Position numbers and translations under genes: made by a program. From Raillietiella orientalis (lineage: Eukaryota), in contig JAYWIR010000085.1 of NCBI GenBank assembly GCA_036172245.1, positions 1-64,000 of the forward strand: a stretch of DNA of 64,000 nt. Direction: 5' to 3'. The notes under the pieces were generated by a model. That model was given only the letters and a program-made list of their open reading frames with translations, ran no database searches and was not told the DNA's origin. Positions 1-58,000 of this stretch are shown here, piece after piece; the first letter of the stretch is position 1; each line of letters opens with the position of its first letter.

Positions 1-501
1 TGGACTGCGGTGCCCTCCTAGGACTGTGGCGGAGGCTGGCCTCAGCTCTCCTGCACCAGGACACCGCGAGAGACTTGATGCGCCGCTTCTTCACGCCAGA
101 CGGCCTGTCTTTAGGTGCTGTCGTTGCAACCGTGTGTTGCACCGGCGCCATCGACAAGGCCCACCGAGAGTTGGAGAAGCTGGCCATCCTTCGTCAGCCC
201 ACCGGATTAGCCAGCGCAAGCATGTCGTTGGCTGCCGAGTGGGCCCATCTGCCAGAGGACGCTAAGAGAGAGATCGCCGGCATCCATCGCCGGTTTTGAA
301 AGGAAGGAACGGACTCACCAAAGACCCCAGTCCCGTGCCCTCCATATTTTTATTTTTATTTTTTTATAGGAGTGTATTTGTGGTCCCCTCCCTCCCGTTC
401 CGGACTTTCGGCATACCGACCTGCGTGTCGGGGATCCCACCCCCTTCGTCTCTTGTTTTTCCTTTGTCCAGGAGCTCTGTTCCCGGATAGTTTTTAATAA
501 A
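1..501 (+). mobile_element. 3' end of an L1/Tx1-type non-LTR retrotransposon (ORF2 C-terminus 1-299 plus 3' UTR)
   Basis: Open frame ...DCGALLGLWRRLASALLHQDTARD...IHRRF* ends at 299; DC..L..LW resembles the end of the ORF2 zinc finger. A T-rich tract, a C-rich tract and a small stem-loop follow, ending in AATAAA at 496-501. A homologous relic at ~9500-9700 retains upstream zinc-finger residues. Confidence 0.7.
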
Positions 502-744
502 CGCCCCGGCGCACCCGGGTGATAAACAGCCGACCCCCCGTTCCAATCCCCTCCCTCCCGTTGCGGTCCCCTCCCTCCCGTTCCGGACCCCTACCTCCCG
601 TTTCGGACTTTCCGTATACCGAACTGCGTGTCGGGGATCCCACCCCCTTCGTCTCTTCTGTGTCCTTTGTCCGGGAACTCTGTTTCTGGATAGTTTTGAA
701 ATAAACGCCCCGGCGCAGCCGGGTGACAAACAGCCGACCCCCCG
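502..744. repeat. 39-nt direct repeat (502-540 and 706-744), candidate target-site duplication
   Basis: cgccccggcgca(c/g)ccgggtga(t/c)aaacagccgaccccccg, 2 mismatches; it is the antisense of APE codons GGRLF(V/I)TR(L/V)RRG. Confidence 0.9.
541..705 (+). mobile_element. 5'-truncated second copy of the same 3' UTR
   Basis: Aligns with 383-501 with about 11-12 differences over ~100 nt, has three copies of a 20-nt unit (cccctccctcccgtt.cgg.), ends in AATAAA at 700-705, and is flanked by 39-nt direct repeats. Confidence 0.75.
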
Positions 745-925
745 CGATCGTTTCGATCTCCTGGACGTCTGTCGCGGTGATCACGTGGATCTCCTGCAAC
801 AGGGCCAGGTCGACCTCACGCAGGTTGGCGGCTGTATCTCGTCTGTTGCCGTCGTCGCACAGCCCGTTGACATTTCAACAGGCCACGCGGATCCGACGGC
901 GATAGATAGTAACACCTGGGCTCAC
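704..925 (-). pseudogene. ORF2 N-terminus: APE (apurinic-like) endonuclease, truncated by insertion
   Basis: IRVAC*NVNGL...VDLALLQEIH...RRGV matches APE motifs (WNVNGL, D..LQETH, RGV). The Trp position is TGA at 877-875. Confidence 0.85.
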
Positions 926-950
926 GATCCGGTGAGCCCAGGTGTTACTA
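907..950 (-). promoter_or_regulatory. Perfect 19-bp stem, 6-nt loop hairpin at the ORF1/ORF2 junction
   Basis: tagtaacacctgggctcac-gatccg-gtgagcccaggtgttacta; on the minus strand the 5' arm begins with the ORF1 stop codons TAG TAA. Confidence 0.9.
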
Positions 951-2659
951 ATGGGAAATCGGCGCTGCGGCGTCCGCCACCTGTTGGGGCGCGATGCTAG
1001 GAGGAGGGGGAGGTGCGTCCAGCACCTGGTCCCCCTCGCCCATGGGTGCCGGCGCGTCAGGCGGATCGCCCGAAGGTGGGGTCGCGCCTACCTGTTCAGG
1101 ATCGGCGACTGCGAGGGGGACTTCGCCCCCCGGCTGACCCTCATCCATCGGGGTGGCCTGCTTGGCGGCTTCCGAGCGTGGGAGATCTCCCTCCGGGATT
1201 CCCACGCTAGCGACGGCTTCCGTCTTCTCGCTGGTGGAGTGGAGGCGTCTCCTCGGCTTCTGGGATTTACGTCCCGTCTTCCGGGGGGTGCCTCCGAGGA
1301 GGAGGATGTGCTTCCGGCCCCCAGGTCGCACTCACCTGCGGGTGCCTTCTTCCCCGGAGCCGGCCTTCGCACGGCCTTGAGCGAGGAATTCTCACGCTCG
1401 GCCAACGTGGCTGCGAGCTCCTCCGCCACCTTCGCGAACGCGGCGTCCTTGGCTTCTGCGGTCGCGTCGCGCGGTTCACCCTATGTACAAACAGAGGGTT
1501 CGCCTTCGCGAACGTCACGCGCGGCGGAAGCGGCGAGGGGATGCTCTTCGCCCAGGATGGCAGCCTCCGGAACGTCGACGAGCTCTAGTGCCACCAAGCA
1601 CTGACGGAGTTTTTCGGGATGCGGCTTTTCCTTTTTATTCGAGCTGGTCGCGACTGTCTCCGTCTTTAACGGTGCCGTTTTTTGAGGCTTCTCATTTCTG
1701 GTTTTAACCACCTGCCAACCCTCCTTGACTCTCGCGTCTTCGTGAGTTTTTTCCTCCGACGCATGTGCGGGTGGAAGGAGGGCTGGAGGCTGGGGCTGGC
1801 CATTTTCGCCTTTTGGTCTTTCGACCTTTTGCGACTTTTTCGCCTGCGACTTTTTGGCGGCAGGTGGCACCGGGGTGGGGCGTTTAGGGCATACGCGTCG
1901 CACGTGTCCCTTAACCCCGCTTAACCCCCCCAGGCACTCCATATTCGGGCGCCTTTTTCGCAGGTGCCTACTGCATTGCAGTGGCTACAGTAGCGGGGTT
2001 TCCCCACGTTCCAGAGGTCGACCGATTCTCTCGCGACCTGTAGCTTGTGGGGCAGCCCACCACCCTCGTTCACGGTGACGCGCTGCGGCCTGGCTCCCGA
2101 AAAGGTTATTATAGCCCTGAAAAATCGTGGGCTTCGGCCACAACGCGTGCACCTCCCCGTATTTCCGCAGTTCATCACTAACCGCTGACCGCGTCATGAG
2201 GTTAGTGATCCCGGTAAGGTGGACCTCCACGGAGCGGTCCATGGATACCGGGTAGATCTTGCGGGCATCTACGTTCTGCGGGTTATTAATCAAGCACTGT
2301 GCCAAGGCGATGTCCTTACACACCACCTCGACGCGCTGACCCTCACGGAGGACGGAGAGGCCGTCAAGATCTTCTTCTTTTACATTCATGCTTTGTAATG
2401 CCTTTGTAGAGGCACGCGTAGTGCGCCCATCAAAAAGTGGACCCACCTTGTACACAAGCGAAGGCTTGTAACCGGCATCCCTGTAGGCGGCTTCTTCGGC
2501 CATGGTTTCCGCGCTAGGCGCGGTCACCATGGCGCTCCATGTCCTCGCCGTAGGCGGGGATGATCCTGGGGCGGGTGCCCCAGACACTGCAGGCTGTGGG
2601 GGCGAACTAGCCTCCCCCACACCTACATCCATCGCGGTGTCCTCAGGCATCGTAGCCAT
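948..2659 (-). pseudogene. ORF1 (gag-like nucleic-acid-binding protein), frameshifted
   Basis: ATG at 2659; RRM-like segment VEVHLTGITNLMTRSAVSDELRKYGEV; two damaged CX2CX4HX4C knuckles (CSHCNAVG-HLRKR and C..GVKGHVRRVC); long Pro/Lys/Ala low-complexity tail ending PISH TAG TAA at 950-945; several frameshifts. Confidence 0.8.
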
Positions 2660-2914
2660 CGGACACCGAGGACGTGAACCACACACCACACAGAAAACGC
2701 TTTTAAAGTCTTATTGACGGAGCGCACTAAAAGCACTACCACCCCGACATCCGCAGGCTGGCGGAATACACAGCGGGAGCCGAGAGGCAAGCCTGGCAGT
2801 CCGGTTCGGCGAGCCTGCTGGGCACGCTTTCTCCGAAACCGCCTGGTATCGGGGGCATGAAGAATCGGCAGTATAACTTTCGGACAGAGCTGCTGAGCTT
2901 AATTTTCTGTACAG

Positions 2915-5900
2915 ATGGCTATAGATCCATTACTTGCTTAGAGATATTTCACATTCCAAAATAAGGAGCAGTGACGATGGAAGGTTACATCTTAATCTGT
3001 TAGTCTTTTCCAATGCCGCATGGCAAACTATGAGAAAGTTGACAAGGTAATTTTGAAGTTAGCTGAATGTCTAATAGGTTGGATAGCATACTACGAAGTA
3101 GTCTATGACTACGAATGACAAAAATATATTCTTAGTTATAATACGGATTCTCTGGATAATGAAAGAAATGGCCACAAGAATAAAGCAGGATGTGCAAGAA
3201 CACAGAAAATGCAATTTAGATTACAAAAGAATGCATAAGAAGATGGATATTTGAAGAAAGAACATTAAAAAATAACAATGATTGCATACATGCCATCTGT
3301 GCCAATCCCCCTGCGTTCTCTAAACAATAGATAACAGCACTTGGAAAAAGAATTCCACAACGAGGCAAAAGTGAGGGCAGGAATGAAAACTGAAGCCTCA
3401 AATTGCTGAAATTTTCTTACGAAGCTTCACATCCAAAATTTTCTGCTTACTGAAGCTTTAAAGGCATGTGCTATACATTCTTTCAATAATTACCAATAGT
3501 TCATTGTAACAAATAATTTGGTTAACCAGTCTTATATTATAGCATTCTGTAAGGTATCATTCGCATGGCTGTTCGCAATGCGAAGATAGCTAATCAAATA
3601 GGCCATCTTCGAATTCGTTTAATTCGAACTAATGATCTGAACTTAATTAACTGAACAAATGGACAGCATCAAAATCCTTTTGCGGATAGAATTACACAGT
3701 TGCCACTAAGCTTAGATGGTCTGATACACCTACGAGATATATGAATCCTGCAATGTTTTCTTGGCAAGCGTGATGTTTAAGGAAAGGCTCTTTGAACGGT
3801 ACTTGAGACATTTGAAATTCCTTGATTCACTGGATTTCGTCTAGTTTTGGTTTGCATAAAGTTTTTGATCTAGTTTTTGATTGCATAAAAATCCCTTTAT
3901 GACAGCTTTTTGGGAATTTGATGCAACGTAAACACATATTTGAGATCCTTGCCCTTCTGTGAGCAGATGCATGAAGTAATGCATTTTACAAGAATTTAGG
4001 CAAAAGTCTTTATAAAAAAAAAAAAAAAGCAAACCAGAGCGTTGAAACAAACTGAACTCCCGGTTACGGATGCCAAGTACTTTAACAATATGACCTGGAG
4101 ATCACAGATGGATGAAGGATCATAACCACAACATGCACAATAGAACTACAGAACTAAAAGCATTAGAGCCTTTCATAATGAAAGTGGTAGCGCTTACTGA
4201 TTGAAATTTAGAAACAGGCAAGCAATCTACAAAGATACTTCCATGGATATACTGCACACAAATTACTTATCTACTGAAGTATGCATGGTCCCTGGCATAC
4301 ATGACTGGAATTTAAAAGCAGCAAAAAAACGTCAATTGAGAGAATATTTCCTTTGTGTTCTCATCTGGAACATTAAAATTAGGATTTGAATTTTCTTCCA
4401 GAAAACGAGGCCAAGATACAGGAACATTATCTTTAATTTACTAATTTTCAAACATGTAACTAATGCAATGCTAAAAACCTCCCTCAAACCATCAACTTAG
4501 TTTCCTAATAAAAAAGTGGTTGTGAATTTTAATAAACGAAAACACCAATGCAATTTATCTAGTAAATGCCTCCTCCAAACAGAGGCAGAAAACAATGAAT
4601 AGCCAAAATTACCATGTTAACAATTATTTAAGACTGGTGAAGCAGAAACACCACCAACAAAAAAAAACAATCTAAAAGTATGAGTTAAGAAAATGTGCTA
4701 AATAAATCGATGCATAAAATTTAATAACTGTAACACAGATGTATGTTCTGAAGAACAGAAATTTGACCCATGGCAAATACCAGGTAAACAGTTCTAGATA
4801 CAAAATGTTTGTTGTTTTTAGATGATCTAACAAGCAGATTAGAGAATGCTGACATGAAACATGAGATTGGAAACTATGAAATCCGAGGTGAAACCCAAAC
4901 TGATCATTCATATGCATCTGATACTGAATCTATTTTGAAAAATACATGCTGCCAACATCAAGTCAGAAAAATTGTTAAAGCATTAATTTTCACATCAAAG
5001 TTTTCTCAATGCAACCTAATGTGCAGCATGCAAACAATAACTGTATTTTTAATCAAGACCTGGGAATCACTTAAGCATTCTCAATTAGAAATGGACCATA
5101 TTTACATGAAGCAGGTGTATGCTAAAATTCCAAATTTGTTTTATCAACATAATTTGTTCTGAAGATGAGGATGGCACCTCCAAAAGCAATAATGGTTTCC
5201 CAAATAGAACTTATAATGTGCAAAGCTTTTCAAAAAGTTTGAAACATGGTTTGTGTTATCGAATTTATGATGACTTGAAAAAACGGAATTATAAAGTCAA
5301 AGACAACTTGAAGATGAACTGCCTTACCTTTATCTCTGCTGTTTTCAGCAGTTTCTTTGTTCTTTGACAAAACCTTTAAGAAGTTTCAAAGCATATTTCA
5401 GACCGTAATATATTGAGAAATAATGAGCATCTCTGAACATTATATTCTTCATCCATTATACTTTGAGTCCCCCATTTACAGCAGATATACGAAAGCAACT
5501 GTACTTTGAATAAACTCGTGTCCAAAATGTATCAAACACCACTTTCAGTCAATAGATTTTCTGGATGCCATTCAGGTTCAGAATAAGTTTTTTCAATTTC
5601 CACGATGTTTATCCGTTTCTGCTTTTCAGCTGCATCTTACAACCATCTCTGGAGTGGCGTATGGCTCAAAGAAATGGCGGTCTTGAAGAGCTTTTTGAAA
5701 GTTTTTCAAATAATTAGCAGCATAACTGTACCCCAATAAGAATTCCACAATCGCTGATAAGAAAACGAACTGGGAAAACACATTAAAATTTCTTGCTCAT
5801 GTTTATGATGATAATCCATTTCCTGACTGCTTTCAATGGAAATCCTCCTCAACAGATTATAAATTTTGACGAAATGAGAACCTAATTGGTTACCACATTA

Positions 5901-9479: not shown

Positions 9480-9720
9480 AACCCGAGGTTACGATCACCC
9501 CTCGCTTGAAAGCCTATCGCGTGAGAGCATCTTCGCGATTCTCTCGCGGTGTTCTCCGGATGAAGTAGCACTGAAGCCAGCCCTCTCGACAGTCCCTGGA
9601 TGACACCGCAGTCTTGCACAGGTACGCGAATATTTGATCGCCCCACGCCTCGAACAGTCGGAATTCAAATCCTCCGGAAACGAGGTGTATGCTCTCAATG
9701 CACTGAGAAATACAATTCAG
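9480..9720 (-). mobile_element. Relic of L1/Tx1 ORF2 C-terminus related to the element at 1-299
   Basis: QDCGVIQGLSRGLASVLLHPENTARE aligns with DCGALLGLWRRLASALLHQDTARD, with visible nucleotide identity (gactgcggtg...ggactgt...acaccgcgagag). Confidence 0.75.
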
Positions 9721-26821: not shown

Positions 26822-27110
26822 TTGCGTGGCCTGCGTTGGCGGCAATGCTAAGCGTTAAGGGTTCGAATCCCCACGTGGAGGATCAATGCCCCCGTGTAAC
26901 AAGTGCGTCGTGAGTTTTGCGTTCCCCCTGTAGGATGGTGCTGGTTCGCCTGTGGTCTTCGGGTGCGGCACTGGAGGAATCTGGAAACCCGGATGCCCCC
27001 ATTTACCGGCCGGGATAGGAAGGCTGACCCTTCGGGGGTCCTCCCAGAAATCAAGGAGCCGATTTCCCATTCGTGGTACTCCTCCGGTTGTGAAAATGAA
27101 GCCACCTTCC
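26822..27110 (+). mobile_element. tRNA-derived SINE, copy A (partial)
   Basis: B-box GGTTCGAATCCC; body shared with copies B-D (tgcgtcgtg...ttccccctg.a.gatg...ctggtt...ggccggga). Confidence 0.7.
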
Positions 27111-27285
27111 AAGACTTTTGTACCATGGAAGAAGCTTTTCTAAACCCTCTGCATGAAATCCCGCCTCCTGGTAGTTCGGTCAGTTCAGCAGCACTGCAGT
27201 TCTCAACTCCTCGCTTTTCCCCTCAAATCGTTGAGCCACTTCAGGTGAAGGAAGGCGTGATAGTCACTGGGCGCAAGGCCGGAAC

Positions 27286-27863
27286 TGCAAGGTGGGTGAT
27301 CAAAAAGTTCCCATTTGAATTTCTGAATTGTCTGCAATGTGTGGGCAGCAGTCTGTGGGACCAAAAGGGTATGTTTTTGGTGGACTTAACGGAGTCTGGA
27401 GCAACCATCACTTCGCAAGTCTTCTGTGGAACACTTTCCAAACTGCGAAGTGCTATTCAGAACCAACGACGTGGTATGCTGAGATCAGAAATTGTTCTTC
27501 TTTTCTATGACAAGGCGCACCTCCCAGACAATTCAGAAATTCAAATGAGAACTTTTTGATCTTACAGTCCTGACCTCGCGTCCAGTGACTACCACGTCTT
27601 TCTGCACCCCCAGAAGTGGCTCAACGATCCGAAGGGAAAAGCGAGGAGTTGAAAACTGCAGTGCTGCTGCACTGGCCGAACTACCAGACGGCGGAATTTC
27701 ATTAAGAGGGTTAAGAAAGCATCAAAAGTGTTTGGAAAAAAATGGCAACTTCGTGGAAAACTGACATGGGGATGCGTGTGTTTCGAACCACCAATATATA
27801 TTTCAGTTTCTCTTATCTGTTCTTTCTATCCGATCGACTCTTACCTTTGAGATGCTCCTCGTG
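27286..27863 (+). mobile_element. Internally deleted mariner (Tc1/mariner) DNA transposon
   Basis: WDQKGMFLVD...TITSQVFCGTLSKLRSAIQNQRRGMLRSEIVLLFYDKA, YSPDLASSDYHVF, KCLEKNGNFVE; degenerate TIRs (ggtgggtgatcaaaaagt at left, acctttgagatgctcctcgt at right). Confidence 0.9.
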
Positions 27864-31544: not shown

Positions 31545-32150
31545 CGTGGTTGCGGTCTCCGAGCGTGGCACCACCAAGTGTCGAGGGTACGAATACTCGG
31601 AAAGAAACCAGACTCGACGCCAGAGAAATGGGGATGCGTCGTGGGTTGGAGTTCCCTCTGCAAGATGACTCTGGTTGACCTACATTCATTCAGGTGCGGA
31701 GGCAATGGTAGCGGCTCAAACCGGATGCCCCCAATGAGTGGCCGGGACAATGGGAGTCGATCTCCGGGTCTTTTCAAAATCAAGAGGCGATCTCTCCCAT
31801 CTCGCGGATGGACCCTCCGTCTCGTACCATGGAGCTGGTGGATTGATGATGCCTCTCCAGAGTGCAAGGAGAGGCGCTGCTCCCCTCGGGAAGCTTCCTT
31901 CTGAGAGAAATACGAAAGCATCCCTTCGGGTTCTCTTCAGAGGAGCAAAAAGGAGCGGTTCCCTTGCTCCGGAAAAGAAATTCCCAATAAGGGATTCTTT
32001 CCGGGTTCCCTTCGGAGACGAAAAAATGGAGAGGACTCCTCCGGAGAGAACAAGGAAACAGTCTTTGTAGACAACCAGGGTGGAGATGTTTCCTTCAAGG
32101 ATCCCTCCCCAGGCGTGAGAGGAGCGGAATCCTTCCTAGATACAAAGTAG
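31545..32150 (+). mobile_element. tRNA-derived SINE, copy B
   Basis: Degenerate B-box gggtacgaatac; collinear similarity with copies C and D (cccttcgggttctcttcagagga, ggttcccttgc). Confidence 0.75.
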
Positions 32151-37460: not shown

Positions 37461-38429
37461 GCATACCCTCTTTTAGAAGGCAGCAGTCCTTTAACGCAGC
37501 TTTCTGCCTTCCATAGAGCTCAGAGATGAGGGGATAGTATCCGGAGAGCTTAAGACTGATGGACCCTGATTCAGGAAAACAAGAAATGCCTAGAGAGGAA
37601 GATGGTACTCATGGCATGCATTGTTCCATTTCTTTTTTATTTGGTGTTTCGGCTGCTTTTTAATTCTCCCTGCAGGCAAGCAGTACGCTTCTTCCTTCCC
37701 TGGGGGCAGGGGAGGACGAAGCCGTACTCGGCTCCTTACTCCGTACTTGGCCTCTGCGAGTGAGAGCGTGCACTTCCCAAGGGGGGGTGGCTACGGCCTC
37801 CCACCCTGCAGCACGTCCCCTGTGGCGGTGGAGGCACCTCGCCGAGACCCTCTACTGCCGGAGCGGTCTGGGGTCTCTTCCCGCCGCCGGATAGGGGAGG
37901 GAAGAGGGGGAGTGGGAGGGAAGAAGAAGGGAGGAAAGAGGGGACGCTTCCCTGAGGCCGTCTTCGCGGGACGGCGGTCGCTGTCCTCCTGCCCGCCGGC
38001 ACTCCGCGGCGGGAGGGCCCTGTCTTGCATGCCAAGGGGGAAACTCAGGGTTTCCGGCCTTACGAGAAGAGGGAGGGAGGGGGAAGGGGAAGAGGCGGCG
38101 TGCAGGCGTTTCCAGGGACCCTGGAACCGTCCATCCTTACGAGGTATGCGGTGCTCGCTATCCACCTTGGTGGAAGTTTGCTTGAACAGTCTCAACAAGT
38201 CAATGCCATCGAAGATAAACGCCATCACCTGCTCTTTCTATTAGTCGATGATTGGTCTGTTGGAGGATGGGGCAAAGCTCTCGCGTCCTTCATTCTTGAT
38301 CCAAGCGGGAGCTGAGGATTCTCTTTTTTTTGGTTCTCCACGTGCTGAAGAACCGTTCACCTCCTTAGGAGGGAACTCGCGAAGCTCTTTGGCGCTGTCC
38401 ACCCCACATGAGGGTGAGTGTAACTCTTC

Positions 38430-39020
38430 GAGTTAGGGAATAACCCCGGAGGGACCACCCTGTGAATCCAGGAAGGCTCTGGAGGAAGGAGTCCGTTCCT
38501 CCTACTCCTGGTAGAGGAATCCCGAAGGGAACCCTCGCCCTGGTTGTCTTGAAGGGAACCCATAAAAAAGAATGCGCTCTTAGAATTTCTCCCCCGTAGA
38601 ATTTTTGCAAGGGAACCACTCCGTTCCCTCCTCCTCTGAAGAGAACCCCGAAGGGACGCTCCCCAATTTCTCCGCAGGAAGCAGCGCGCTTTTTGTCACT
38701 CTAGAGAGGTATCAATCGGCCAGCTCCATGGCAGGGCTCCATTTTTCTAGCAAGACAGAAAACTCGAAGGGAACCGGCGTTCCTTAATTTCTGGAAGGAA
38801 CCAGAGAGTCAACTTCTAATCCAGGACAGACAGCGGGAGCTCCCAGTTTCCGGCTTCCATCGGCGCTGCACCCGAAGTCTATCGGCCAACCAGAGTCATC
38901 CTGCGGGGGGAAGGTTACTCGAAACCCACGACTCACCCATTTCTCGCCCTCTATCCTTTACGGGTATTCGAATCTGCAACACTTGGTACCGCGTGCAGCC
39001 CCAAGGCCGACAACGCGGGC
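38430..39020 (-). mobile_element. tRNA-derived SINE, copy C
   Basis: B-box-like GATTCGAATACC on the minus strand; extensive identity with 43795-44415. Confidence 0.8.
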
Positions 39021-39600: not shown

Positions 39601-41046
39601 AACATTGAACCTATCGTAGAAAACGATGCTAGAGGGTTTAGAAAGTATAGGAAGGAGCTTTTCATTCCCACAGGCTCGAATGCTAAAGTGCTGGTTACCG
39701 AATTGCTGTCTTGTGGGGGAGTGTTGGGTGGCGCGAGTATATGTGAGCTTCCCGGCAACGCTGGCGAGCCTCCCTGATCCTTTACAGAAAAGACGAGCTC
39801 TAAATGGCTCCAGGGAAGAGCACGGCGTGATATACAGAGAGGGGAGGATCCTGCATCTCGCCGACCAACCTTCTACTCTTCCTCCCGCTTAATCGCTACA
39901 ACGAACTCCCTCTGGAACTGGAAACGATGCGACAATCTGGACTTCTCGCTTTCCTTCCTTGCCACCTCCCGTGAACAGGGGATCGCTACCAGGCGAGGCC
40001 CGCCATGACTGCCGCTGGTCTCCATTGCCGTCTCCTTCTTTTTCCCTGACCATCTTCCAGTCACGGGGCCAACTGCCCTTCGAGCGGAGCGCGGCTCCCC
40101 GTAACAGTGGACAGTCTTGGTTTCCGAATCCTTCCTTCCCCCTCCCTCGAGTGGCGCACGATCTCCAGCAGCACTCCACGCCCACGAGAGCCATCCTCCG
40201 AGGAGCTCTTCCCGGGTCGAGGATGCAAGGGACGTCCACGCTGCTCGGTGTCCCCACGTCCAACGCCGCTGCCACTGTTCCTCCTGCCGAGGTTCTTCTC
40301 CGATCGGTGGTTGTCGCGGCGCTCCTATTTCACCTCTCTTTCCCGCGCCCTCACGCTTCCCGAGATGCGGCCGTGCAACAGCCGAACGGCGCTAGTGGAA
40401 AGGCATCCAGAGAGCTCCTGAAGAAGAACACAGGACGATGGTATTCGGTCGGCATCCTTGCAATCGCACGCCACTGGAGGATGGCCACAAGGGTCAAGGA
40501 GGAGGTGGATGAACCCAAGAGAGGGAAAAGCAGTAGAAGGAGGAAAGGGGGCAGAGGAAAAATTTTCCGCTCCTGTATGAAGTTGTGTCCCCCCCCCCAA
40601 AAAAAAAAAAAAAAAACACATTGCCGAATGGGGGAAGGCTGAAGTGGGACCATCTCTCAGTGCCTTCTTGGGGTGCGAGCAAAACTACACGCCAGAATCC
40701 GGTGGAGCTGCCAGCGCTTCGGGATTCCCGGAACTTTTCATCCCGGTTTCCCGAGTTTCCTTCTACCAGGAATGCGGGAGCGAAAGAGAGGAGGAGAGAG
40801 GGAGAAGGAGTGACCCTACGGATCTCCGTCGCTTCCGCAAGGGTGCTCTCCAGGAGATGACCCACCCCAGCCGACGGGAACAGGACGCCTTCCCTGGACG
40901 CTGGAGATCTCCCTTGAGCGGAGGAACCCTTGAGATCAGCGAGGCACAGAAACGTCCCGTACGAGGGGAAGGAAGGGCGTTCCCTTCTCCCTTCGCACGT
41001 TAGCGCACGCGCAAATCAGGGCGGGGAACCCTTTATGCAGAAACGT

Positions 41047-41051
41047 TCAGT
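41047..41051 (+). promoter_or_regulatory. Candidate initiator (TCAGT) of the Not gene
   Basis: TCAGT 35 nt upstream of the ATG. Confidence 0.3.
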
Positions 41052-41081
41052 CCGCACGTGGGGCTGCAGTGCGCGGTCCGC

Positions 41082-41900
41082 ATGGCAACGGTCGCTGCGT
41101 TCTCCCGACTCGTCTCAAGACCCCTGGATCTGTCCCAGTGCGCGCCCGAGTGCTGCTCGGTCCCTCCCTTTTCTCGGAATCCCTTCAGCATAGACGCCAT
41201 CCTGGGTCGGGATGGGTTCAGGAGAGGGAACTTCTCCCTGCCCCCACAAAGCGGCAGCAGCAACCGAGGTGAGGAGGAGAGGGAAAGGGGGAGGAAAAGG
41301 GAGAGGAGGAAGAGAAGTGGAGAGGCGCTTCTCCTCCTCTCTACCATGCGCACGCCCTCTCCGCCCTTTCTCGGGAGACCCCGGCCGTCTTTCATCCCTC
41401 CTCTCCCCTCAGGCGAGGAAGTTGGCACCACCGTCAGCGACTCCCCGTCCGCCCCTGCGGCGAAGCCCCGGTCCAAGAGAATGCGCACGACCTTCAGCCC
41501 GGACCAGGTGGAGCAGCTGGAGAGGATCTTCCGCGCCCGGCAGTACATGGTTGGTCAGGAAAGACTGCACCTCGCGGCGACTCTCCGCCTCACGGAGGCG
41601 CAGGTGAGCGCACCCCGAACCTCCTCCCCTCCCCTTCCGGTCTTGCCCGCCCACGTGTTTACTCGACAGTCGCCGCACGAGCGCCCCCTCTTTCAGGTGA
41701 AAGTGTGGTTCCAGAACCGCAGGATCAAGTGGCGCAAGCAGCAGATGGAAGCCTTCCGGCAACGCTGGAGAACCGATGCGAGCCAGAACTCCGCCCTGAG
41801 CGGCCCCTCGGCCCCTTCCCCGGTTTCCCCCCTCCCTCCTCCCTCTCCTGTCCCTCCTCCTACGCACCAGCGGAGGCAAGAAACCTGCTTCTCCACATAG
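41082..41900 (+). CDS. Not: Not/Noto-family (NKL, ANTP class) homeobox transcription factor; predicted exons 41082-41268, 41413-41603, 41697-41900 (193 aa)
   Basis: Homeodomain KRMRTTFSPDQVEQLERIFRARQYMVGQERLHLAATLRLTEAQ/VKVWFQNRRIKWRKQ (QYMVG and IKWRK are Not-like); eh1 motif FSIDAIL; GT-AG intron 41604-41696 at the usual helix-3 position. Intron 1 is less certain. Confidence 0.92.
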   Translation: MATVAAFSRLVSRPLDLSQCAPECCSVPPFSRNPFSIDAILGRDGFRRGNFSLPPQSGSSNRGEEERERGRKRERRKRSGEALLLLSTMRTPSPPFLGRPRPSFIPPLPSGEEVGTTVSDSPSAPAAKPRSKRMRTTFSPDQVEQLERIFRARQYMVGQERLHLAATLRLTEAQVSAPRTSSPPLPVLPAHVFTRQSPHERPLFQVKVWFQNRRIKWRKQQMEAFRQRWRTDASQNSALSGPSAPSPVSPLPPPSPVPPPTHQRRQETCFST

Positions 41901-43794: not shown

Positions 43795-44415
43795 ATGTAG
43801 TAACGCTTCAAGTTAGGGGGTACTCCGGGAGGGGGAACCGCCCTATGGATCCGGGAAGGACTCTGGAGGAAGGAATCTGCTCCTCTCACGCTTGGTAGAG
43901 GAATCCCTTTCTCATTCTCTCCGCATTGACCCTCTGGAAAGAATCCGTTCCTGGAATTTCTTCTCCGGAGGGAACCCGCAAGGGAACCGCTCCCTGTTTC
44001 CTCCTCTCCTGAAGAGAACCCCGAAGGGACGCTGCCAGATTTTTTCTGAATTGTCGCTCCCCTAAGGGAGCAGCGCGCTTCTCCACACTCTGGAGAGGGA
44101 TCAACCAACTCCCTGGATAAAGGATCCCCAGAGGGAGGGAAGGAGGTTCCATTTGCACAGACCGATGGGAAACCCCTAGGGGAACCGGTTCCTTGATTCT
44201 ATTTCCAGGAAGGACCCCGGAGGGTTGACTCCCGATCCCGGCCACTCAACGGGTTTTCTTTTTTACCAGCTCCTACCAGTGCCTCACCCGATTATGGGCC
44301 AACCAGCGTCATCTTGCAGGGGGAACACGACGCATCCGTTACTCTGGCGTCGATCTTCTGGTGGGATTCGAACCCGTGACACTTGGTGCCACGCTCGAAG
44401 ACCACATGGCCTCCT
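43795..44415 (-). mobile_element. tRNA-derived SINE, copy D (most complete)
   Basis: Perfect B-box GGTTCGAATCCC; ~600-bp body shared with copies A-C. Confidence 0.8.
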
Positions 44416-44453
44416 GCGTCGGCAAATCGATGTTTATGTGCAATCCCGTTCCG

Positions 44454-44698
44454 TCAGAACCTTCCACTCAAGGTCTGTCCTTGCAAGACCTCCCAGTGCT
44501 GTTCTTCGTTGGATTTCTGAGATCAGTTCGAAGTGGGGCAGAGGGACCATCAGTTGGCCACCCCAACGAGAAGTGGGATCTGCGTCTGCATGAATGCCTC
44601 ACCCCCTCTGCTGGAGCGACGAGATCTGAGGAGCATGACCTAGGAGTAGGCAAGAATGCGTCGGCAGAGTGGACGGTGGTTAGCCACGGCGTGGCCTG
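44454..44698. repeat. Dispersed ~245-bp repeat, copy 1 (probably a LINE ORF2 3' fragment on the minus strand)
   Basis: Collinear with 48105-48348; the minus frame reads SCLLLGH...HFELISEI..RT.LEWKVL in both copies. Confidence 0.8.
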
Positions 44699-44970
44699 TT
44701 GGGAGAGAGGGCAGTAGCCACCTCAGAAAGCGTCAAGGTCGTTACCAATCGAACTCGGAATGTCGAATCCCGCAGGTCCGATCCATGCCTCTCAACCCTT
44801 CGACTACTGACTGTTGCTTGACATTCTATTAATTGCTCATTGTGTGACTATTTATTGTTGAACAGATCAAGCGCTTTGATTGTTGCACTGCTAGTGACTG
44901 TTGAGCTGTTAGATCTTATTTGTTGATCTATTCGTGCGAAGCATCACTTATCATTAAAACCCCCATTAAA

Positions 44971-46899: not shown

Positions 46900-49800
46900 G
46901 ACTGCACCGGAAGAGGGTAGCAGCGTTGAGAGTTACGCCCTTCGAATGCTCTTCCGCACTTACCAATGAGACGGCAGGACGCATACCGGAAACTTCAGCT
47001 CCGTATGCTGCCTCTCCAGGTATAGCCCACCATCCATCTTCTCGGCTGAGCAGCCCCAGTTGCTCTTCGATCTTCATCCAGCGAGATGCGACTCTCGAAA
47101 TTCTCCGCACCCATATCCTGTGCGTCCTGGGGCCCAGTGTCGGACCCTTCCTTCTCTTCCGTTCCGGATCACCTTCGCTTCCCTTCAGAGGTTCTTCGGA
47201 GGTGTCGAAAGTAGGACGAGTAGTGGACTGCTCTCCCTTTCCCATATCCTGGATTATTCTCTGGGTTTTCAATTTCTCGTCAGAGTTCTTTCCGAGAGCG
47301 GACGCTGCCGTCTTTGCATTCATCGAGGTGCATCCGAGCAACGTCCACCCGCCCCACCCCACCATCGTCAGTTGCCTGCTCTCCGATCGTCCGAGTCTCG
47401 GACTCGTGCGAGCTGGACCACCTTGCCCCACTCGCTCACTTCTTTTCCCTCTCTGGGTATTCCTTCTTGGCGGGTCGCGTCTTCCTGAGCAGCTTCCTGC
47501 TCCAGACAATCTCCCAGGAAGCGCGCGGTCACTCGAGCTCTACCCTTGGGGTGGAGGAAGGTCCGAGACCGGCCTGCTTCCCTCCTCCCCGGTCCCTGTC
47601 TCGAGCGACGGCGCCCTTGATCCTCCTCGCGAGCCTTTTTGGGCACGATCCGACATCGAAAGGTGACATCACTCGTCCCATGCGGTTCCTTTCGCTCGGA
47701 GCGGGCATTACCGACTTTCTGACCGGAGACGGCGCACACAGCGTTCCCTTCGCATCTCCTTCTCAGGGTGGGATTAAACTAGGTTTTCCTTCATGCACCC
47801 CTCCCTCTCTTCCTTCTCACGACCTGGTCGGACGCCACTGCGTCGCAAATCCTGGAGCCGGATGGGAAATAGGAGGGAAACTTGGAGCTCAGCCTCTTAC
47901 GCGAGGATCTCCAGGAGTGCAGACATTCGGGGGCGTGGGAAAATTCAGAAATGCTTCCTTCGATGCGTCCCTTGCGGAAAAAGGGTCAGGAAGGGCCAAT
48001 GTAGGACCGACTTGAAGACATGCTTACCCTCGAGGCCAACCCGGCGGTCACCACAAATCTTCCGATTCCCGTTCTCTTCACTGATGCTCGGCCACCTGCG
48101 CTCCTCAGCACCTTCCACTCAAGGCTTGTCCTTGGAAGATCTCCCGGTACTGTTCTTTGTGAAATTTCTGAGATCAGTTCGAAATGGGCAGAGGGACCGT
48201 CAGTCGACCACCCCGATGAGAAGTAGGATCTGCGTTTGCTTGAATGCCTCACCCTCTCCGCTGGAGCGACGAGATCTGAAGAGCCATGACCTAGGAGTAG
48301 GCAAGAATACGTCGGCAGGGTGGGTGGTGGTTTGCCACGGCGTGGCCTGATGGGAGTGGGGGCAGTGCTGAGGATCCAAAGAGCAACCACAGAGAGGTAA
48401 CTTCCACCGGGGAGCGCATTTCGGCTAATGGAAAGCATGCCAAATCTCCTTTCTTCTTTGTCCTCCTCCTTGTCTGCCTTGCCTTCCTTCAAGGTCTCAC
48501 TTTTCCTTCCGATGGGCTGAACTTCCTTCTCTGGAAAAATTGGCCACCAAGAGATGCACAGGAACCTGGGAGGAAACAGGAGGAGGGATGAAATCGGAGG
48601 GTCTGCAAACGCGACTCCTTCCAATGGCAGAGGGTCTTCCTACCTACGCAAAAATCCTCTTTGATGGATCAACTTTTCCCCTTCTTCTTCTACCAGTACT
48701 TACAGGAAAACACGTGCGTCTTCTGAGTACACGCGAGTTCGAGGATTTTTATCCCGAGAGACTGAGGCGATCGAAGCTCACTTTAGGACAAACCCCTCTC
48801 TTTCCGACAAGTCCCCGAAACTCTACCTCCCCACCCATCCCCTTTTCTTCACGAAAAGCCGGAGCATATTCGATCCCACAAATTCTTCCAGACTCGGTAC
48901 ATCCACCAGCACACGCGTAGCTGGCTGCGGTCTCACACAAAGGAACCGCAAGATCAAGAAGAATCTCTCCTTCTTGCACTAGGGTGCCGGTGTAGGTAGT
49001 CCCAAGGACTGCTCATTCCAGAACACAGAGTGCATCCAGCATCCTGTCGAGGAGCGTGGAGGTGTGCTGCTCCTGCTAACTGAAGAAGTGGGAACTTTCT
49101 GGACATCATCATTAGACTTGCACCACCCAAGATCCCGAGATGACTCGACTCTCCTTGCTGCCCCGTGCATCTCATCGTCCTTCGCTTTCGTTGCGAGGAA
49201 ACCGTACTGGTGGAACCGATCCTGAATGCCTTTTAATTTGCCAAACAGACAGATGAAAGCTATGATCAAGTAACGTTTCCTGCTCTTCTGTCTGAGGTGA
49301 GATCTTCATGTGGGTTTGACAGATCAAGAAGCATTCTCGACCACCTTCTCCTTGCTTCTGAATCCAGTCCTTGGTTGCTTGTTTTTTTCTCGAATAGGAT
49401 GACAGGAGTTTCCGGAAGAAATTTCTGCACTCTGGAATGAAGAAGAATTTGATCACACAGTAGCATGGCACTTCCATTTTTTTAGGTGATCTCTCAGGGG
49501 ACATCATTCAGTTTTCAAAGACCATGGGGAAGTTCAGGATATCTACAGTTCCCTTTTTCATGGCGGCGAATGCTGAGGTTCTTCAGCAAGTGGAGTTATT
49601 TCCTTGGTTATCCGATGAAGAAGGTAGTTTGCAGGTGTATTCTACCTCCCTGCACGCGATAGTCATCACAGGATCGCGACTTCGAGATGCTTTTGCTACC
49701 GGAAGCCACTCCAGCGATCCAGGGGAGTTATGCGGAATCCTCAGCAAACCCAACTCTCACAGTGAGCAAAACCATCATCTCCTCCGGGAAGCTGAAGAAG

Positions 49801-55049: not shown

Positions 55050-58000
55050 CTGATTCTCCCTGATTCACGTGAAGAGATACACTTGCTTCCAGAAACCTCA
55101 TTGAGACTGGAACCATGAAAGCTGTGATTCTGGGCTCAGAGTAACCGATTAAAAAGGAAAGTCCAAGACTTTGGCATCAAAGAGTATGCACGAAAGTGCA
55201 AACACCGATCGTAAATCGTTCCTGATTTTCTAAACTGGATGTTGTGCTGAGCATAAGAGGAACAAGATGGTGGTGATTTTTCCGCATGGTCAGTCGTCAT
55301 AGAAGAGTAACGTGGTTTCGATGTTATGCTGTAGACCTCCTGGAATTTTTCTTGAAAAAGAGGGGTTCGAAGGGATGGGAAACCTGAACTGATTTTATTG
55401 AGCATCTTCCCCAAGTCGGATCTTGCCTCAAGGTGCATCCAGGTGGACAGATCGATAGGCTTAGCATGGCGACAGGTCACGACACTGCGGCCCTCGAGGT
55501 GAATCGAGTTGCATCGCGAGGCATCTCGTGCTGGCCGGATGACAGAAAGATGACGAGGGCAAAGAACGGATGAAGACGCGGAGGCGAAGCGTGAGGGTTG
55601 CACTACGACCACTGTACGCAGCAAAGCCTTCGGAAATGTCCATGCAGCTCCAGGTACTGGAACGTCACCAAGTCCCAACCATCACTGGTGCTCAGAAATA
55701 ACTCAGGAAGGAATTTGTCGTTACCCATGCTTGGATGACTGAAGTGGTCTCAGGTTTGTCATTCCACTCCGACTCGATAGATAAGAGACTGCGGACACGT
55801 AGACACAGCTGATGAGAGCAACTTCGGTCAAGATTCAGAAGAATATTGAGAACCTTTCTCGAACCATGATTCGGTCTCTGAATGGAGCTCTTTCCGTGTA
55901 ATGTCCACAGTAGTGTTGCCTCCTGCTTCTGTACTCGCGTTGTTGACAGAGTGCTCCACTGTCCGTAACACTGCTGACGCGAGCCACTGTCCGAGTGATC
56001 TTCGGGAGTCCAGTGACACCACAGGTCAATGCCTCCATCAATTTTTCCTCGTCTTTTCCGCAGCCCGAAGTTTCCCTCCTCTTTTGATGATCTGGAAAAA
56101 ACTCTCTAAGAAAACCAAAGAAAATAAGTGAACCTTCCCTCTTTGCCTCTGCGTTGCTCTTGTGATTCTGCACGCTTGCCTCGATTACATCTCCCGATGA
56201 CAGCATCTCTGATCAGGGTATCTCGCTGATTTCTCATTGGCACGTGTCCGTAATCCCCCTTTATCTTGATTATAAGGGTTCCATTGAGTTCGCGGAGGTC
56301 GCGCTTTGAATATTTGAGCGTCTGGTGTTGACGAACAGCGAACGAAAGCGCTTGTGTGATGTCCACGGGGGAGCTGGTGGCACCCGTACACTTCTTTGCT
56401 CTTGCGAATCCAAATGTCTTCACTCTGTTGTCTGTACAGGAGACAGGGAGCAGCACTTTCTCTATCCCCGGGCTTGTTGCTCCGCAACAGTCTATCGGGA
56501 CTGAGGTTCCTCGGGCTCGTCGCTGTTCTATAGAGGGAAGGGTGCAGAAGGCGTCTCAAGGGCACCGGTGGCGGAGGAGAAGCGGGCGGAACGGGAACGC
56601 TCTTCAGTGTTCCAATCTACGTGGTTGCACTTCCAGAATCTCCGGGCTCGCGCTCACGGTTCCTCGAAACACCGCTGGAGTCGCCTTCGTTGCATGTACC
56701 TAACGGTATTGTCCCAAGGCATCATTGCTAAGGGCTGAGCAGGCGCGTGAGCAACGCCAGCAACTGCCTTTCACGACCCCATGCCACTCGGATTCCCTAC
56801 TTCGAAGGTCCTCCTCTTTTCAGCTGAGGTCTGAGGACAGGTCTAGACCTACAGAATGGAAAGTGGAAAGTTCGGACATTTGCCTCAAGATGGTTAGAAT
56901 CGCTCCTTCTCCTCCTTATCTCCCTGCTCCCCCTACTCACCACCTTTTAAGATCGCTCCTCCATCGTTTGACAAACATTGGCTAGAGCATCGCTCCCCGA
57001 CATCTTGTTCTCCTCCCAGGATATCCTTGCGAGCGAATCCTTGCGCTTTTCCTTCGAAGATCCTGCCCGCCAACCTTTTCATTTTCTTCTCCAGAGCTGC
57101 AGCGCTGTGAGCCCATCGAGTGCTCTTCCGCACTTACCAATGAGAAGGCAGGAAGCGGGACGCATACCACAAACTCTCCGGCATTAGATGCTGCTGCTTC
57201 AGGTCTCTCGTGCCGTCTTCCCAGGTGAGAGGTTCCTTCGATCCTTCTTGCTCCCGGTAGGAATGGAGGTGTCAGTGTAGGTGACCCCAAGGAACTGTTG
57301 ATCCTGGAACATGGAGTGCAGCCAGCAGCCAGTCAGGGAGAGAGGAGACTTGTTGCTCCTGCTGACTGAAGAAGTGGGAGCATTCTGGACATCACCATCA
57401 GACTTGCACCATCCGAGATCTCGAGATAGCTCGGATCTCTCAGCTGCCCATGCGCCTCGCCGTCCTCTGCTTTCGTTGCGGAGCAACCTCACAGAGAAGA
57501 CCAGGAGCGGTTTCGGGATTCTTCGGCTTCGCGAGGCAGGAATGAGCTCCTCCCTGAGGACGGACATTTCTTGTGTGCCCTCTTCAGAAACTTTTGCCAT
57601 TCTTCAGAGAAATACAAAGGAAGAACAAAAAGAGGTGCGTTAGGAATGCTGCTGTGTTCCCGGAAATGTTTCTGTTTTCGTGCGTTATCAGCTGACATCC
57701 CAGGCAAACATGTGAGATGCAAAGTCGTTGTTGACTTTTCCAAGATTCACTTTGTGCATTCCTGATTTCCTGTTTGTCTTCCCATACTTTTTTGATAATG
57801 AGCTTCATCGTGACCTCACCGCGCGCCTGGGGTTACTCAGGCGCGTCTGTCTTCTCCCGCCCTTCGACGGTTCCTAGGCAGAGTTCCTGGAAACAACGAG
57901 CAAATTTGCATTCTCCAAAACAAAGCTGCCTTCCATGCGCAACATCCGCCGTCTGGAAAGCGTCTGCCTCAGTGAATCCGGCCAGTTTCTTTGCGAGGGG

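Follow-up and report, generated by a model that had tools for sequence, protein, structure and literature searches.

Family P of Raillietiella orientalis is a 5.8-kb LINE of the L1 group with a strong but relaxed target preference, and its best target is a single APE position in a related group of elements, H, which it enters in antisense. We hold this reading to be correct with a probability of about 80%. The labels P and H denote the plus-strand family and the minus-strand host group, respectively, as they lie in the window, by which we mean the whole 64,000-nt stretch of DNA analysed (C85:1-64000). G and Q are two further LINE families; L numbers are loci retrieved from the genome (210 Mb in 491 contigs) and C numbers are its contigs.

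Two P ends in a minus-strand host LINE

At the left end of the window, two plus-strand P ends stand in tandem, each with an AATAAA and a near-identical stretch of 39 nt after it, next to a minus-strand element with an ORF1 of L1 type and the beginning of an APE domain that is interrupted in the window (Table 1). This much had been correctly described in the original prediction, as had the fact that two insertions, separate and antisense, share a site within the APE of a related L1-type element. The boundaries have to be redrawn. The element was thought to end at AATAAA, but a search with 300-501 finds the next ~24 nt constant in 30/30 loci, whatever the flank. Of the 39-nt repeat, taken for target or TSD, 15 nt are indeed TSD, whereas the other 24 nt are P's own 3' end; the test then proposed, counting 'cgccccggcgca' flanks, would score falsely positive at every copy. 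Likewise, the APE frame was placed as breaking at ~705 after 'RGV'. The true break is at 729/730 and the supposed APE motif 'RRGV' is the P terminus, a piece of UTR read antisense, because intact host alleles read GGRLYWQC to CGVAFF (...IAGGRLYWQC...CGVAFF in L051-L055 and L060).

Table 1 Features of the window, followed by fixed addresses of further LINE ends (ORF2 codons in H numbering) and recurrent contig ends.
Feature	Position	Strand	Remarks
P copy 1, LINE 3' end	1..525	+	Includes ORF2 end, stop 297-299; cut by contig start
P copy 1, 3' UTR		+	AATAAA at 496-501, terminal hairpin, end at 525
P copy 1, own 3' terminus (hairpin)	502..525	+	No poly(A) tail after it
TSD, first copy	526..540	+	15 nt; host APE codons around residue 76-80, in antisense
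P copy 2, 5' junction	541..600	+	Three imperfect ~20-nt iterations of P UTR motif
P copy 2, 3' end	585..729	+	5'-truncated; AATAAA at 700-705
P copy 2, own 3' terminus	706..729	+	Corresponds to terminus of copy 1
TSD, second copy	730..744	+	Host APE frame broken at 729/730
Host LINE, 5' part (H group)	730..2741	-	75.7% to H reference nt 69-2044
Host pieces		-	5' end ~2741; degenerate ORF1 (ATG ~2659); ORF2 APE start to codon ~80
Perfect inverted repeat, 19 nt	907..950	.	Host ORF1/ORF2 junction; absent in H reference
G-family ORF2 fragment, 80 nt	2742..2821	+	Abuts host 5' end, opposite orientation; 91% to G nt 2707-2786
Dispersed repeats	26850-27718, 31551-32002, 38420-38731, 43800-44715, 48105-48366, 48983-49203, 57268-57488		
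Address of LINE ends	codon 171	sense	7/8 ends of one cluster; L063, L065, L187, L211, L212, L214, L216
Address of LINE ends	codon 285	antisense	5/6 ends; L081, L197, L206, L212, L214
Address of LINE ends	codon 588	antisense	4/4 ends; L083, L088, L189, L218
Addresses of LINE ends	codons 311, 502, 1086-1087, 71, 368	antisense	2-5 ends each
Contig ends	H ORF1 nt ~552		Starts of C17, C26, C37, C38, C51, C55, C60, C75, C133, C188, C197, C297; ends of C32, C22

The terminus of copy 1 can form a stem-loop (-9.9 kcal/mol). The TSD copies agree with each other at 15/15 positions and match empty host alleles. Copy 1 is 91.7% identical to nt 5274-5803 of the full-length P of L066, and its final 140 nt reach 99.3% identity with other P copies; it appears to be the younger of the two ends. 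Copy 2 is 87% identical to P nt 5659-5803, with 92% for its best match among other copies, and is more diverged, with different subfamily alleles. The two 3' ends differ at 16 aligned positions over ~144 nt, where about 11-12 in ~100 nt had been given for the UTRs. Both differences within the 39 nt (514 and 523) lie in the P terminus. Several of the 16 differences are common alleles among 123 other copies. We read the two ends as separate insertions, and on the sequence grounds of these 16 differences and subfamily alleles we reject the local tandem duplication or assembly artefact that had been named as a possible cause of the double end. Twin priming (5' inversion) is also rejected for the window junction, where the P 3' end joins the broken end of a different family. 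The ~20-nt iterations at the 5' junction of copy 2 occur at 1/125 P ends examined and may stem from repeated priming or slippage.

The window host is a diverged member of the H group, and the inverted repeat at its ORF1/ORF2 junction is probably a local fold-back mutation. A Pfam scan of the short frames of the window gave nothing above cut-off. Elsewhere in the window, an antisense fragment at 9540-9613 is 76% like the P zinc-finger region, and a homeobox-like frame at ~41004-41600 bears the motif FSIDAILG, which we take to be a sign of an animal. The dispersed repeats, of 200-500 bp, 66-87% alike and some of them inverted, are likely small non-autonomous elements.

The full-length reference for P is the copy of L066 (5,803 bp, with TSD), and that for H an uninterrupted minus element in L064. 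Their ORF2 sequences share about 67% nucleotide and 53% amino-acid identity, and their 3' UTRs differ except at the terminus. The layout of P is that of H, with ORF1 followed by an ORF2 that comprises APE, RT and zinc finger. H ORF2 matches Exo_endo_phos (1e-12), RVT_1 (3e-18) and, weakly and below cut-off, zf-RVT; its closest solved structure is human L1 ORF2p (5e-47). Judged by these features, both are L1-group non-LTR retrotransposons. P has the ORF1 and ORF2 layout, the variable 5' truncation and the short TSDs of that group. It has no 3' poly(A) tail, its ends being a hairpin and GAYAA joined straight to the target. An AATAAA with a short GC hairpin and no poly(A) tail is common to many L1 families here, despite their differing UTRs.

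In an RT tree of 32 rows (P, H, G, Q and 28 hand-picked of 127 database hits, with no curated Tx1 set), the four families and a single unnamed database relative make up a clade of their own, with 100/100 support and a long branch; Q is the closest relative of P. This clade stands apart from the group that holds a TX1-named alligator protein, on a backbone that is unresolved. P is for that reason not filed under Tx1, the label it had been given, its RT making a separate lineage in this tree. Metagenome contigs searched for relatives of the H APE gave 53 pattern matches, none of them confirmed.

Use of the H site across the genome

The exact P-type terminus pattern has 149 matches in the genome. 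The 100 listed ones (contigs C1-C37) were examined; three of them match others without a difference over 120 nt (L110/L111, L127/L168, L178/L179), which leaves 97 distinct junctions. This tally omits nine ends on other contigs, eight tied to the APE search, including those of the window, plus L015. Among the matches listed, 20/97 lie at the exact H base in antisense, 3/97 match H over the first 15 nt only (one tandem at the site, the others elsewhere), 16/97 touch other L1 sequence, and 58/97 have no L1 match in the 3' flank. The strict specificity originally proposed does not survive this last count. The same register is found in three more distant APE genes (L092, L101, L138; flanks read by eye, outside the 20).

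Seen from the host side, patterns that tolerate 3 mismatches at most count 122 H-group sites as filled and 461 as empty genome-wide, a filled share of about 21%. Reversed-pattern controls give 0, which puts the junction far beyond chance. A flank-only pattern finds 620 H-group sites, again with 0 for the reversed control. Filled and empty counts are pattern-based and thus lower bounds; the filled pattern can also catch non-P families with a P-like terminus, as at L102 and L123, which cluster elsewhere by UTR. The 583 sites amount to 1.4 per million strand positions, to be set against a share of ~0.2 of P insertions. In the P cluster, 44/52 ends with a reference-mapped flank fall at H nt 2020-2059 in antisense, in a sample enriched for the site.

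P shows a strong preference for the H site and not strict specificity, because its off-target sites carry a looser version of the H sequence. Preference for a repeated sequence is a feature of the Tx1 clade that P shares. The concentration of nearly all copies at one target, as in R1/R2, is not found, since 77/97 ends among the matches listed are not strict H-site junctions. R1Bm and SART1Bm are far stricter in their specificity than P. Two secondary repeated P targets, used in antisense, lie close to the 3' ends of further H-like elements (L096, L104, L133 and L154; L009 and L161).

Both host halves and a TSD are present at six loci, with P lengths of 5.8, 5.8, 1.6, 0.9 and 1.6 kb (L066, L069, L085, L086 and L097, respectively) and 4.1 kb (L071). 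At many other loci, additional nested elements mask the 5' junction or the locus does not reach it. A TSD is resolved at 53/125 ends examined and measures 13-14 nt in 35/53, for P lengths of about 0.1-5.8 kb. Forty-two junctions fall into 38 groups; in 5/861 pairs, the P side and the H side both reach at least 95% similarity. The correlation between the similarities of the two sides is r = 0.08, and among the 57 pairs whose P parts are at least 95% alike, 30 have hosts at most 85% alike. The P insertions at the H site are independent events. The predicted repeated use of one site is thereby upheld, with 122 filled sites, 20/97 unselected ends and 38 groups in 42 junctions.

The window is not alone in carrying tandem ends around a TSD: L079, L102 and L108 have them too, and so does L096 at a site outside H. 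Relative to its partner, the upstream copy has diverged less in the window and L096, to about the same extent in L108 and slightly more in L079; a rule by which the upstream copy is the later one is not clean across the pairs.

Choice of the target site

The off-target motif was drawn from 45 TSD-resolved sites minus 4 that repeat another target, hence 41. It reads G-17, C-15, A-9 and C-4, followed by ACAGC over +1 to +5, and no clear preference is seen past +6; p values are 2e-7 for G-17, 3e-5 for C-15 and 7e-8 for C-4. Positions +1 to +4 are the strongest (31, 38, 40 and 28 of 41). The H site scores 12.2 bits, the second best in the H element, at a background frequency of 1.6e-5.

P spares itself. 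The homologous site in its own APE scores 4.7 bits by the off-target motif, reads GGAGC at +1 to +5 in place of the ACAGC of the H site, and is filled in 0/79 copies (Fisher p=4e-8); it is also empty in 7/7 retrieved loci. The target had been predicted to lie in P's own family or a relative. It is a relative, the H group, at ~67% nucleotide identity to P in ORF2, and not P's own family. Self-targeting is rejected on the same two counts, a host family that differs from P and an empty homologous site. Self-nesting of the Zepp/ZeppL kind was not found either, as tandem P copies arise only via TSD re-use.

Target-primed reverse transcription is established for LINEs, and variable 5' truncation with short TSDs is its signature. 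From this process and the junctions, we propose the following sequence of events. The P complex would recognise a stretch of ~23 bp, most of which precedes the junction in the 5' direction as read along the strand of the element; the motif itself is observed, and its reading by protein is our proposal. The APE sense strand would then be nicked within the tyrosine codon of GGRLY, and reverse transcription would be primed there from the RNA 3' terminus. A second nick, 13-14 nt away, would give rise to the TSD that is observed. Because recognition sits mostly upstream of the junction, the upstream TSD copy would retain the recognition stretch and could be hit again, and this putative order of events would produce tandem 3' ends. 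GGAGC instead of ACAGC would spare P's own APE.

The motif predicts ~1.1% of insertions at H sites, and ~21% are seen, a gap of about twenty-fold; therefore a further factor acts. It would most likely be pairing between the nicked DNA and RNA ends derived from the target, or else non-additive recognition. PMC1950540 reports that loop grafts altered L1-EN specificity and that 'additional factors' are also needed.

A stronger role for the RNA is conceivable, in which pairing, more than the endonuclease, selects the site. Transcripts of H-site source copies would carry target bases at both ends, a 3' read-through of ACA(G) and a 5' TSD-like leader, and so keep a memory of the target. No poly(A) tail follows the listed P ends, and the strongest off-target positions are precisely +1 to +4. 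Outside H, the P-type 5' ends of L118 and L139 carry the H target sequence at their very start, suggesting that source copies are transcribed from within the TSD of an H-site copy. Accurate reverse transcription by R1Bm needs downstream target sequence (excerpt of PMC7265360, citing Anzai 2005). Pairing cannot be the whole story, because many H-site copies are 5'-truncated (L071, L085, L086, L097) and so do not require the 5' leader, and because the upstream positions -17, -15, -9 and -4 cannot stem from 3' pairing. Moreover, both TSD copies usually share variant bases, which speaks against a copied-in read-through, and a control site in H ORF1 with ACAGCC at +1 to +6 is nevertheless unused. 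We consider selection mainly by pairing unlikely, while as an added step it is compatible with the preferred reading, recognition by the P complex.

That control site also bears on a still weaker account, in which P inserts anywhere ACAGC-like, selection or chromatin does the rest, and copies pile up in neutral LINE clusters. Most P copies do lie elsewhere, and the H copies sit in dense LINE nests, often near contig ends. Selection or chromatin, however, cannot choose one base and one strand, as the 44/52 mapped ends of the enriched sample would demand. The ORF1 site is the best-scoring position in H (12.8 bits), belongs to the same elements and is filled in 0 cases against 159 empty (p=1e-14, with 2 mismatches allowed for filled and 3 for empty sites). 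Together with the shortfall of 1.1% predicted against ~21% seen, this largely refutes the account, which we regard as very improbable.

Least credible of all, with hardly any probability left, is a single ancient P-in-H composite amplified by segmental duplication, the window's double end being a local duplication or assembly error: the 5/861 closely similar junction pairs, the three listed ends identical to others, the window's start at a contig end and its two identical TSD copies fit it, but 38 groups in 42 junctions, hosts 78-99% identical to the H reference, 5' truncation points that vary and come with TSDs, the 16 differences between window ends (copy 1 being up to 99% and copy 2 at most 92% like other copies) and the same tandem design at L079, L102, L108 and off-target L096 stand against it.

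For the host, the consequence is in part as predicted, the insertion breaking its ORF2. The disabling of the host may be a selected purpose, or P may simply use a safe, repeated landing site.

Sister families with fixed addresses

Clustering of 212 LINE 3' ends, from loci sampled around L1 clusters, reveals further fixed addresses in ORF2 (Table 1), of which codon 171 in sense is used by the Q family. Three families form a ring, each arm at a fixed base: P inserts in the H endonuclease, H in G ORF1 and G in the P RT. The H-to-G and G-to-P arms rest on few events in the sampled loci. H is found in G ORF1 at nt 1391, with hosts 94% (L064) and 90% (L220) identical to G, and 72-74% in L061 and L062. 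G in the P RT at nt 3727 has both junctions at two loci, L077+L241 (C5:2558700-2571399) and L074+L242 (C26), and G-like 5' ends occur at the same P RT base in L078, L080 and L090. The ring is not exclusive, because G also hits H at the homologous base and P once hits a G-like APE (L101).

The ORF2 proteins of the families are about 50-60% identical to one another, and P, H, G and Q are unlike one another in the region that corresponds, by alignment, to the hairpin loop of L1. They may form a community of sister L1 families, each sparing itself and homing in the others to a conserved coding motif that differs from family to family, with a closed ring from P to H to G to P; the elements would serve one another as renewable landing pads and suffer knock-outs, and target-derived RNA ends may aid the memory of the address. 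We give this wider picture even odds.

A separate observation concerns contig ends (L221-L234). Of the 14 contigs fetched, 13 terminate no more than 3 nt from H ORF1 nt ~552 and one falls 10 nt short of it; ORF1 always points off the contig end. No inserter at this position was found in the loci examined. An insertion at a fixed site that was removed or left unassembled could account for these ends, as could a programmed break, the end of a chromosome or an effect of assembly.

Preference for other mobile elements is known from LINEs of the Tx1 clade. PMC4494074 names snRNA genes and microsatellites as their preferred targets, along with DNA transposons and LTR retrotransposons: Xenopus Tx1 inserts in Tx1D (piggyBac), Tx1-Mar in Mariner-N4_AMi, Tx1-9_AMi in Harbinger, and Tx1-8_Crp and Tx1-4_AMi in LTR retrotransposons. 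The same paper describes tandem insertions of SINEU-3 that sandwich a TSD. Compared with what is described there, P is likewise an APE-type animal LINE of the L1 group that prefers a site in another mobile element. In contrast to these elements, its target is an endonuclease coding position of a sister LINE, used in antisense while its own gene is spared; several families here have different addresses in each other, and the RT does not group with the TX1-named protein.

Zepp and ZeppL of green algae are L1-group LINEs that insert in existing copies of their own and build nested clusters with many 5'-truncated tandem 3' ends (PMC8226300, in excerpt). Nested L1-group clusters and 5'-truncated tandem 3' ends are common to both systems by that excerpt, but P avoids its own homologous site (0/79), goes into a relative instead and lies for the most part scattered beyond clusters. 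The Zepp/ZeppL type is characterised by a single centromeric cluster on each chromosome; the LINE clusters here are often close to contig ends. With R1Bm and SART1Bm, as covered in the excerpt of PMC7265360, P shares APE-type site choice, re-use of the site and a possible role for pairing between target and RNA 3' end; their targets, unlike that of P, are rDNA or telomere repeats, and their clade differs. Among mainly open-access papers, searched by title and start of abstract, none describes a LINE directed to a coding position within a different LINE family.

The transposon-targeting LINEs known so far turn to DNA transposons, LTR elements or their own copies, whereas P turns to one endonuclease position of a sister LINE. 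P is a target-preferring LINE directed at one endonuclease codon of a relative, self-sparing, and living among families with fixed addresses in each other. Such related ORF2s with different addresses are a natural panel on what sets the target of an APE-type LINE, be it the loop, the RT, the zinc finger or the RNA ends, a question left open by the L1-EN study in the part of PMC1950540 that speaks of 'additional factors'. They also make competition between transposons testable at base resolution, and targeting of the P type may explain the growth of LINE-only clusters.
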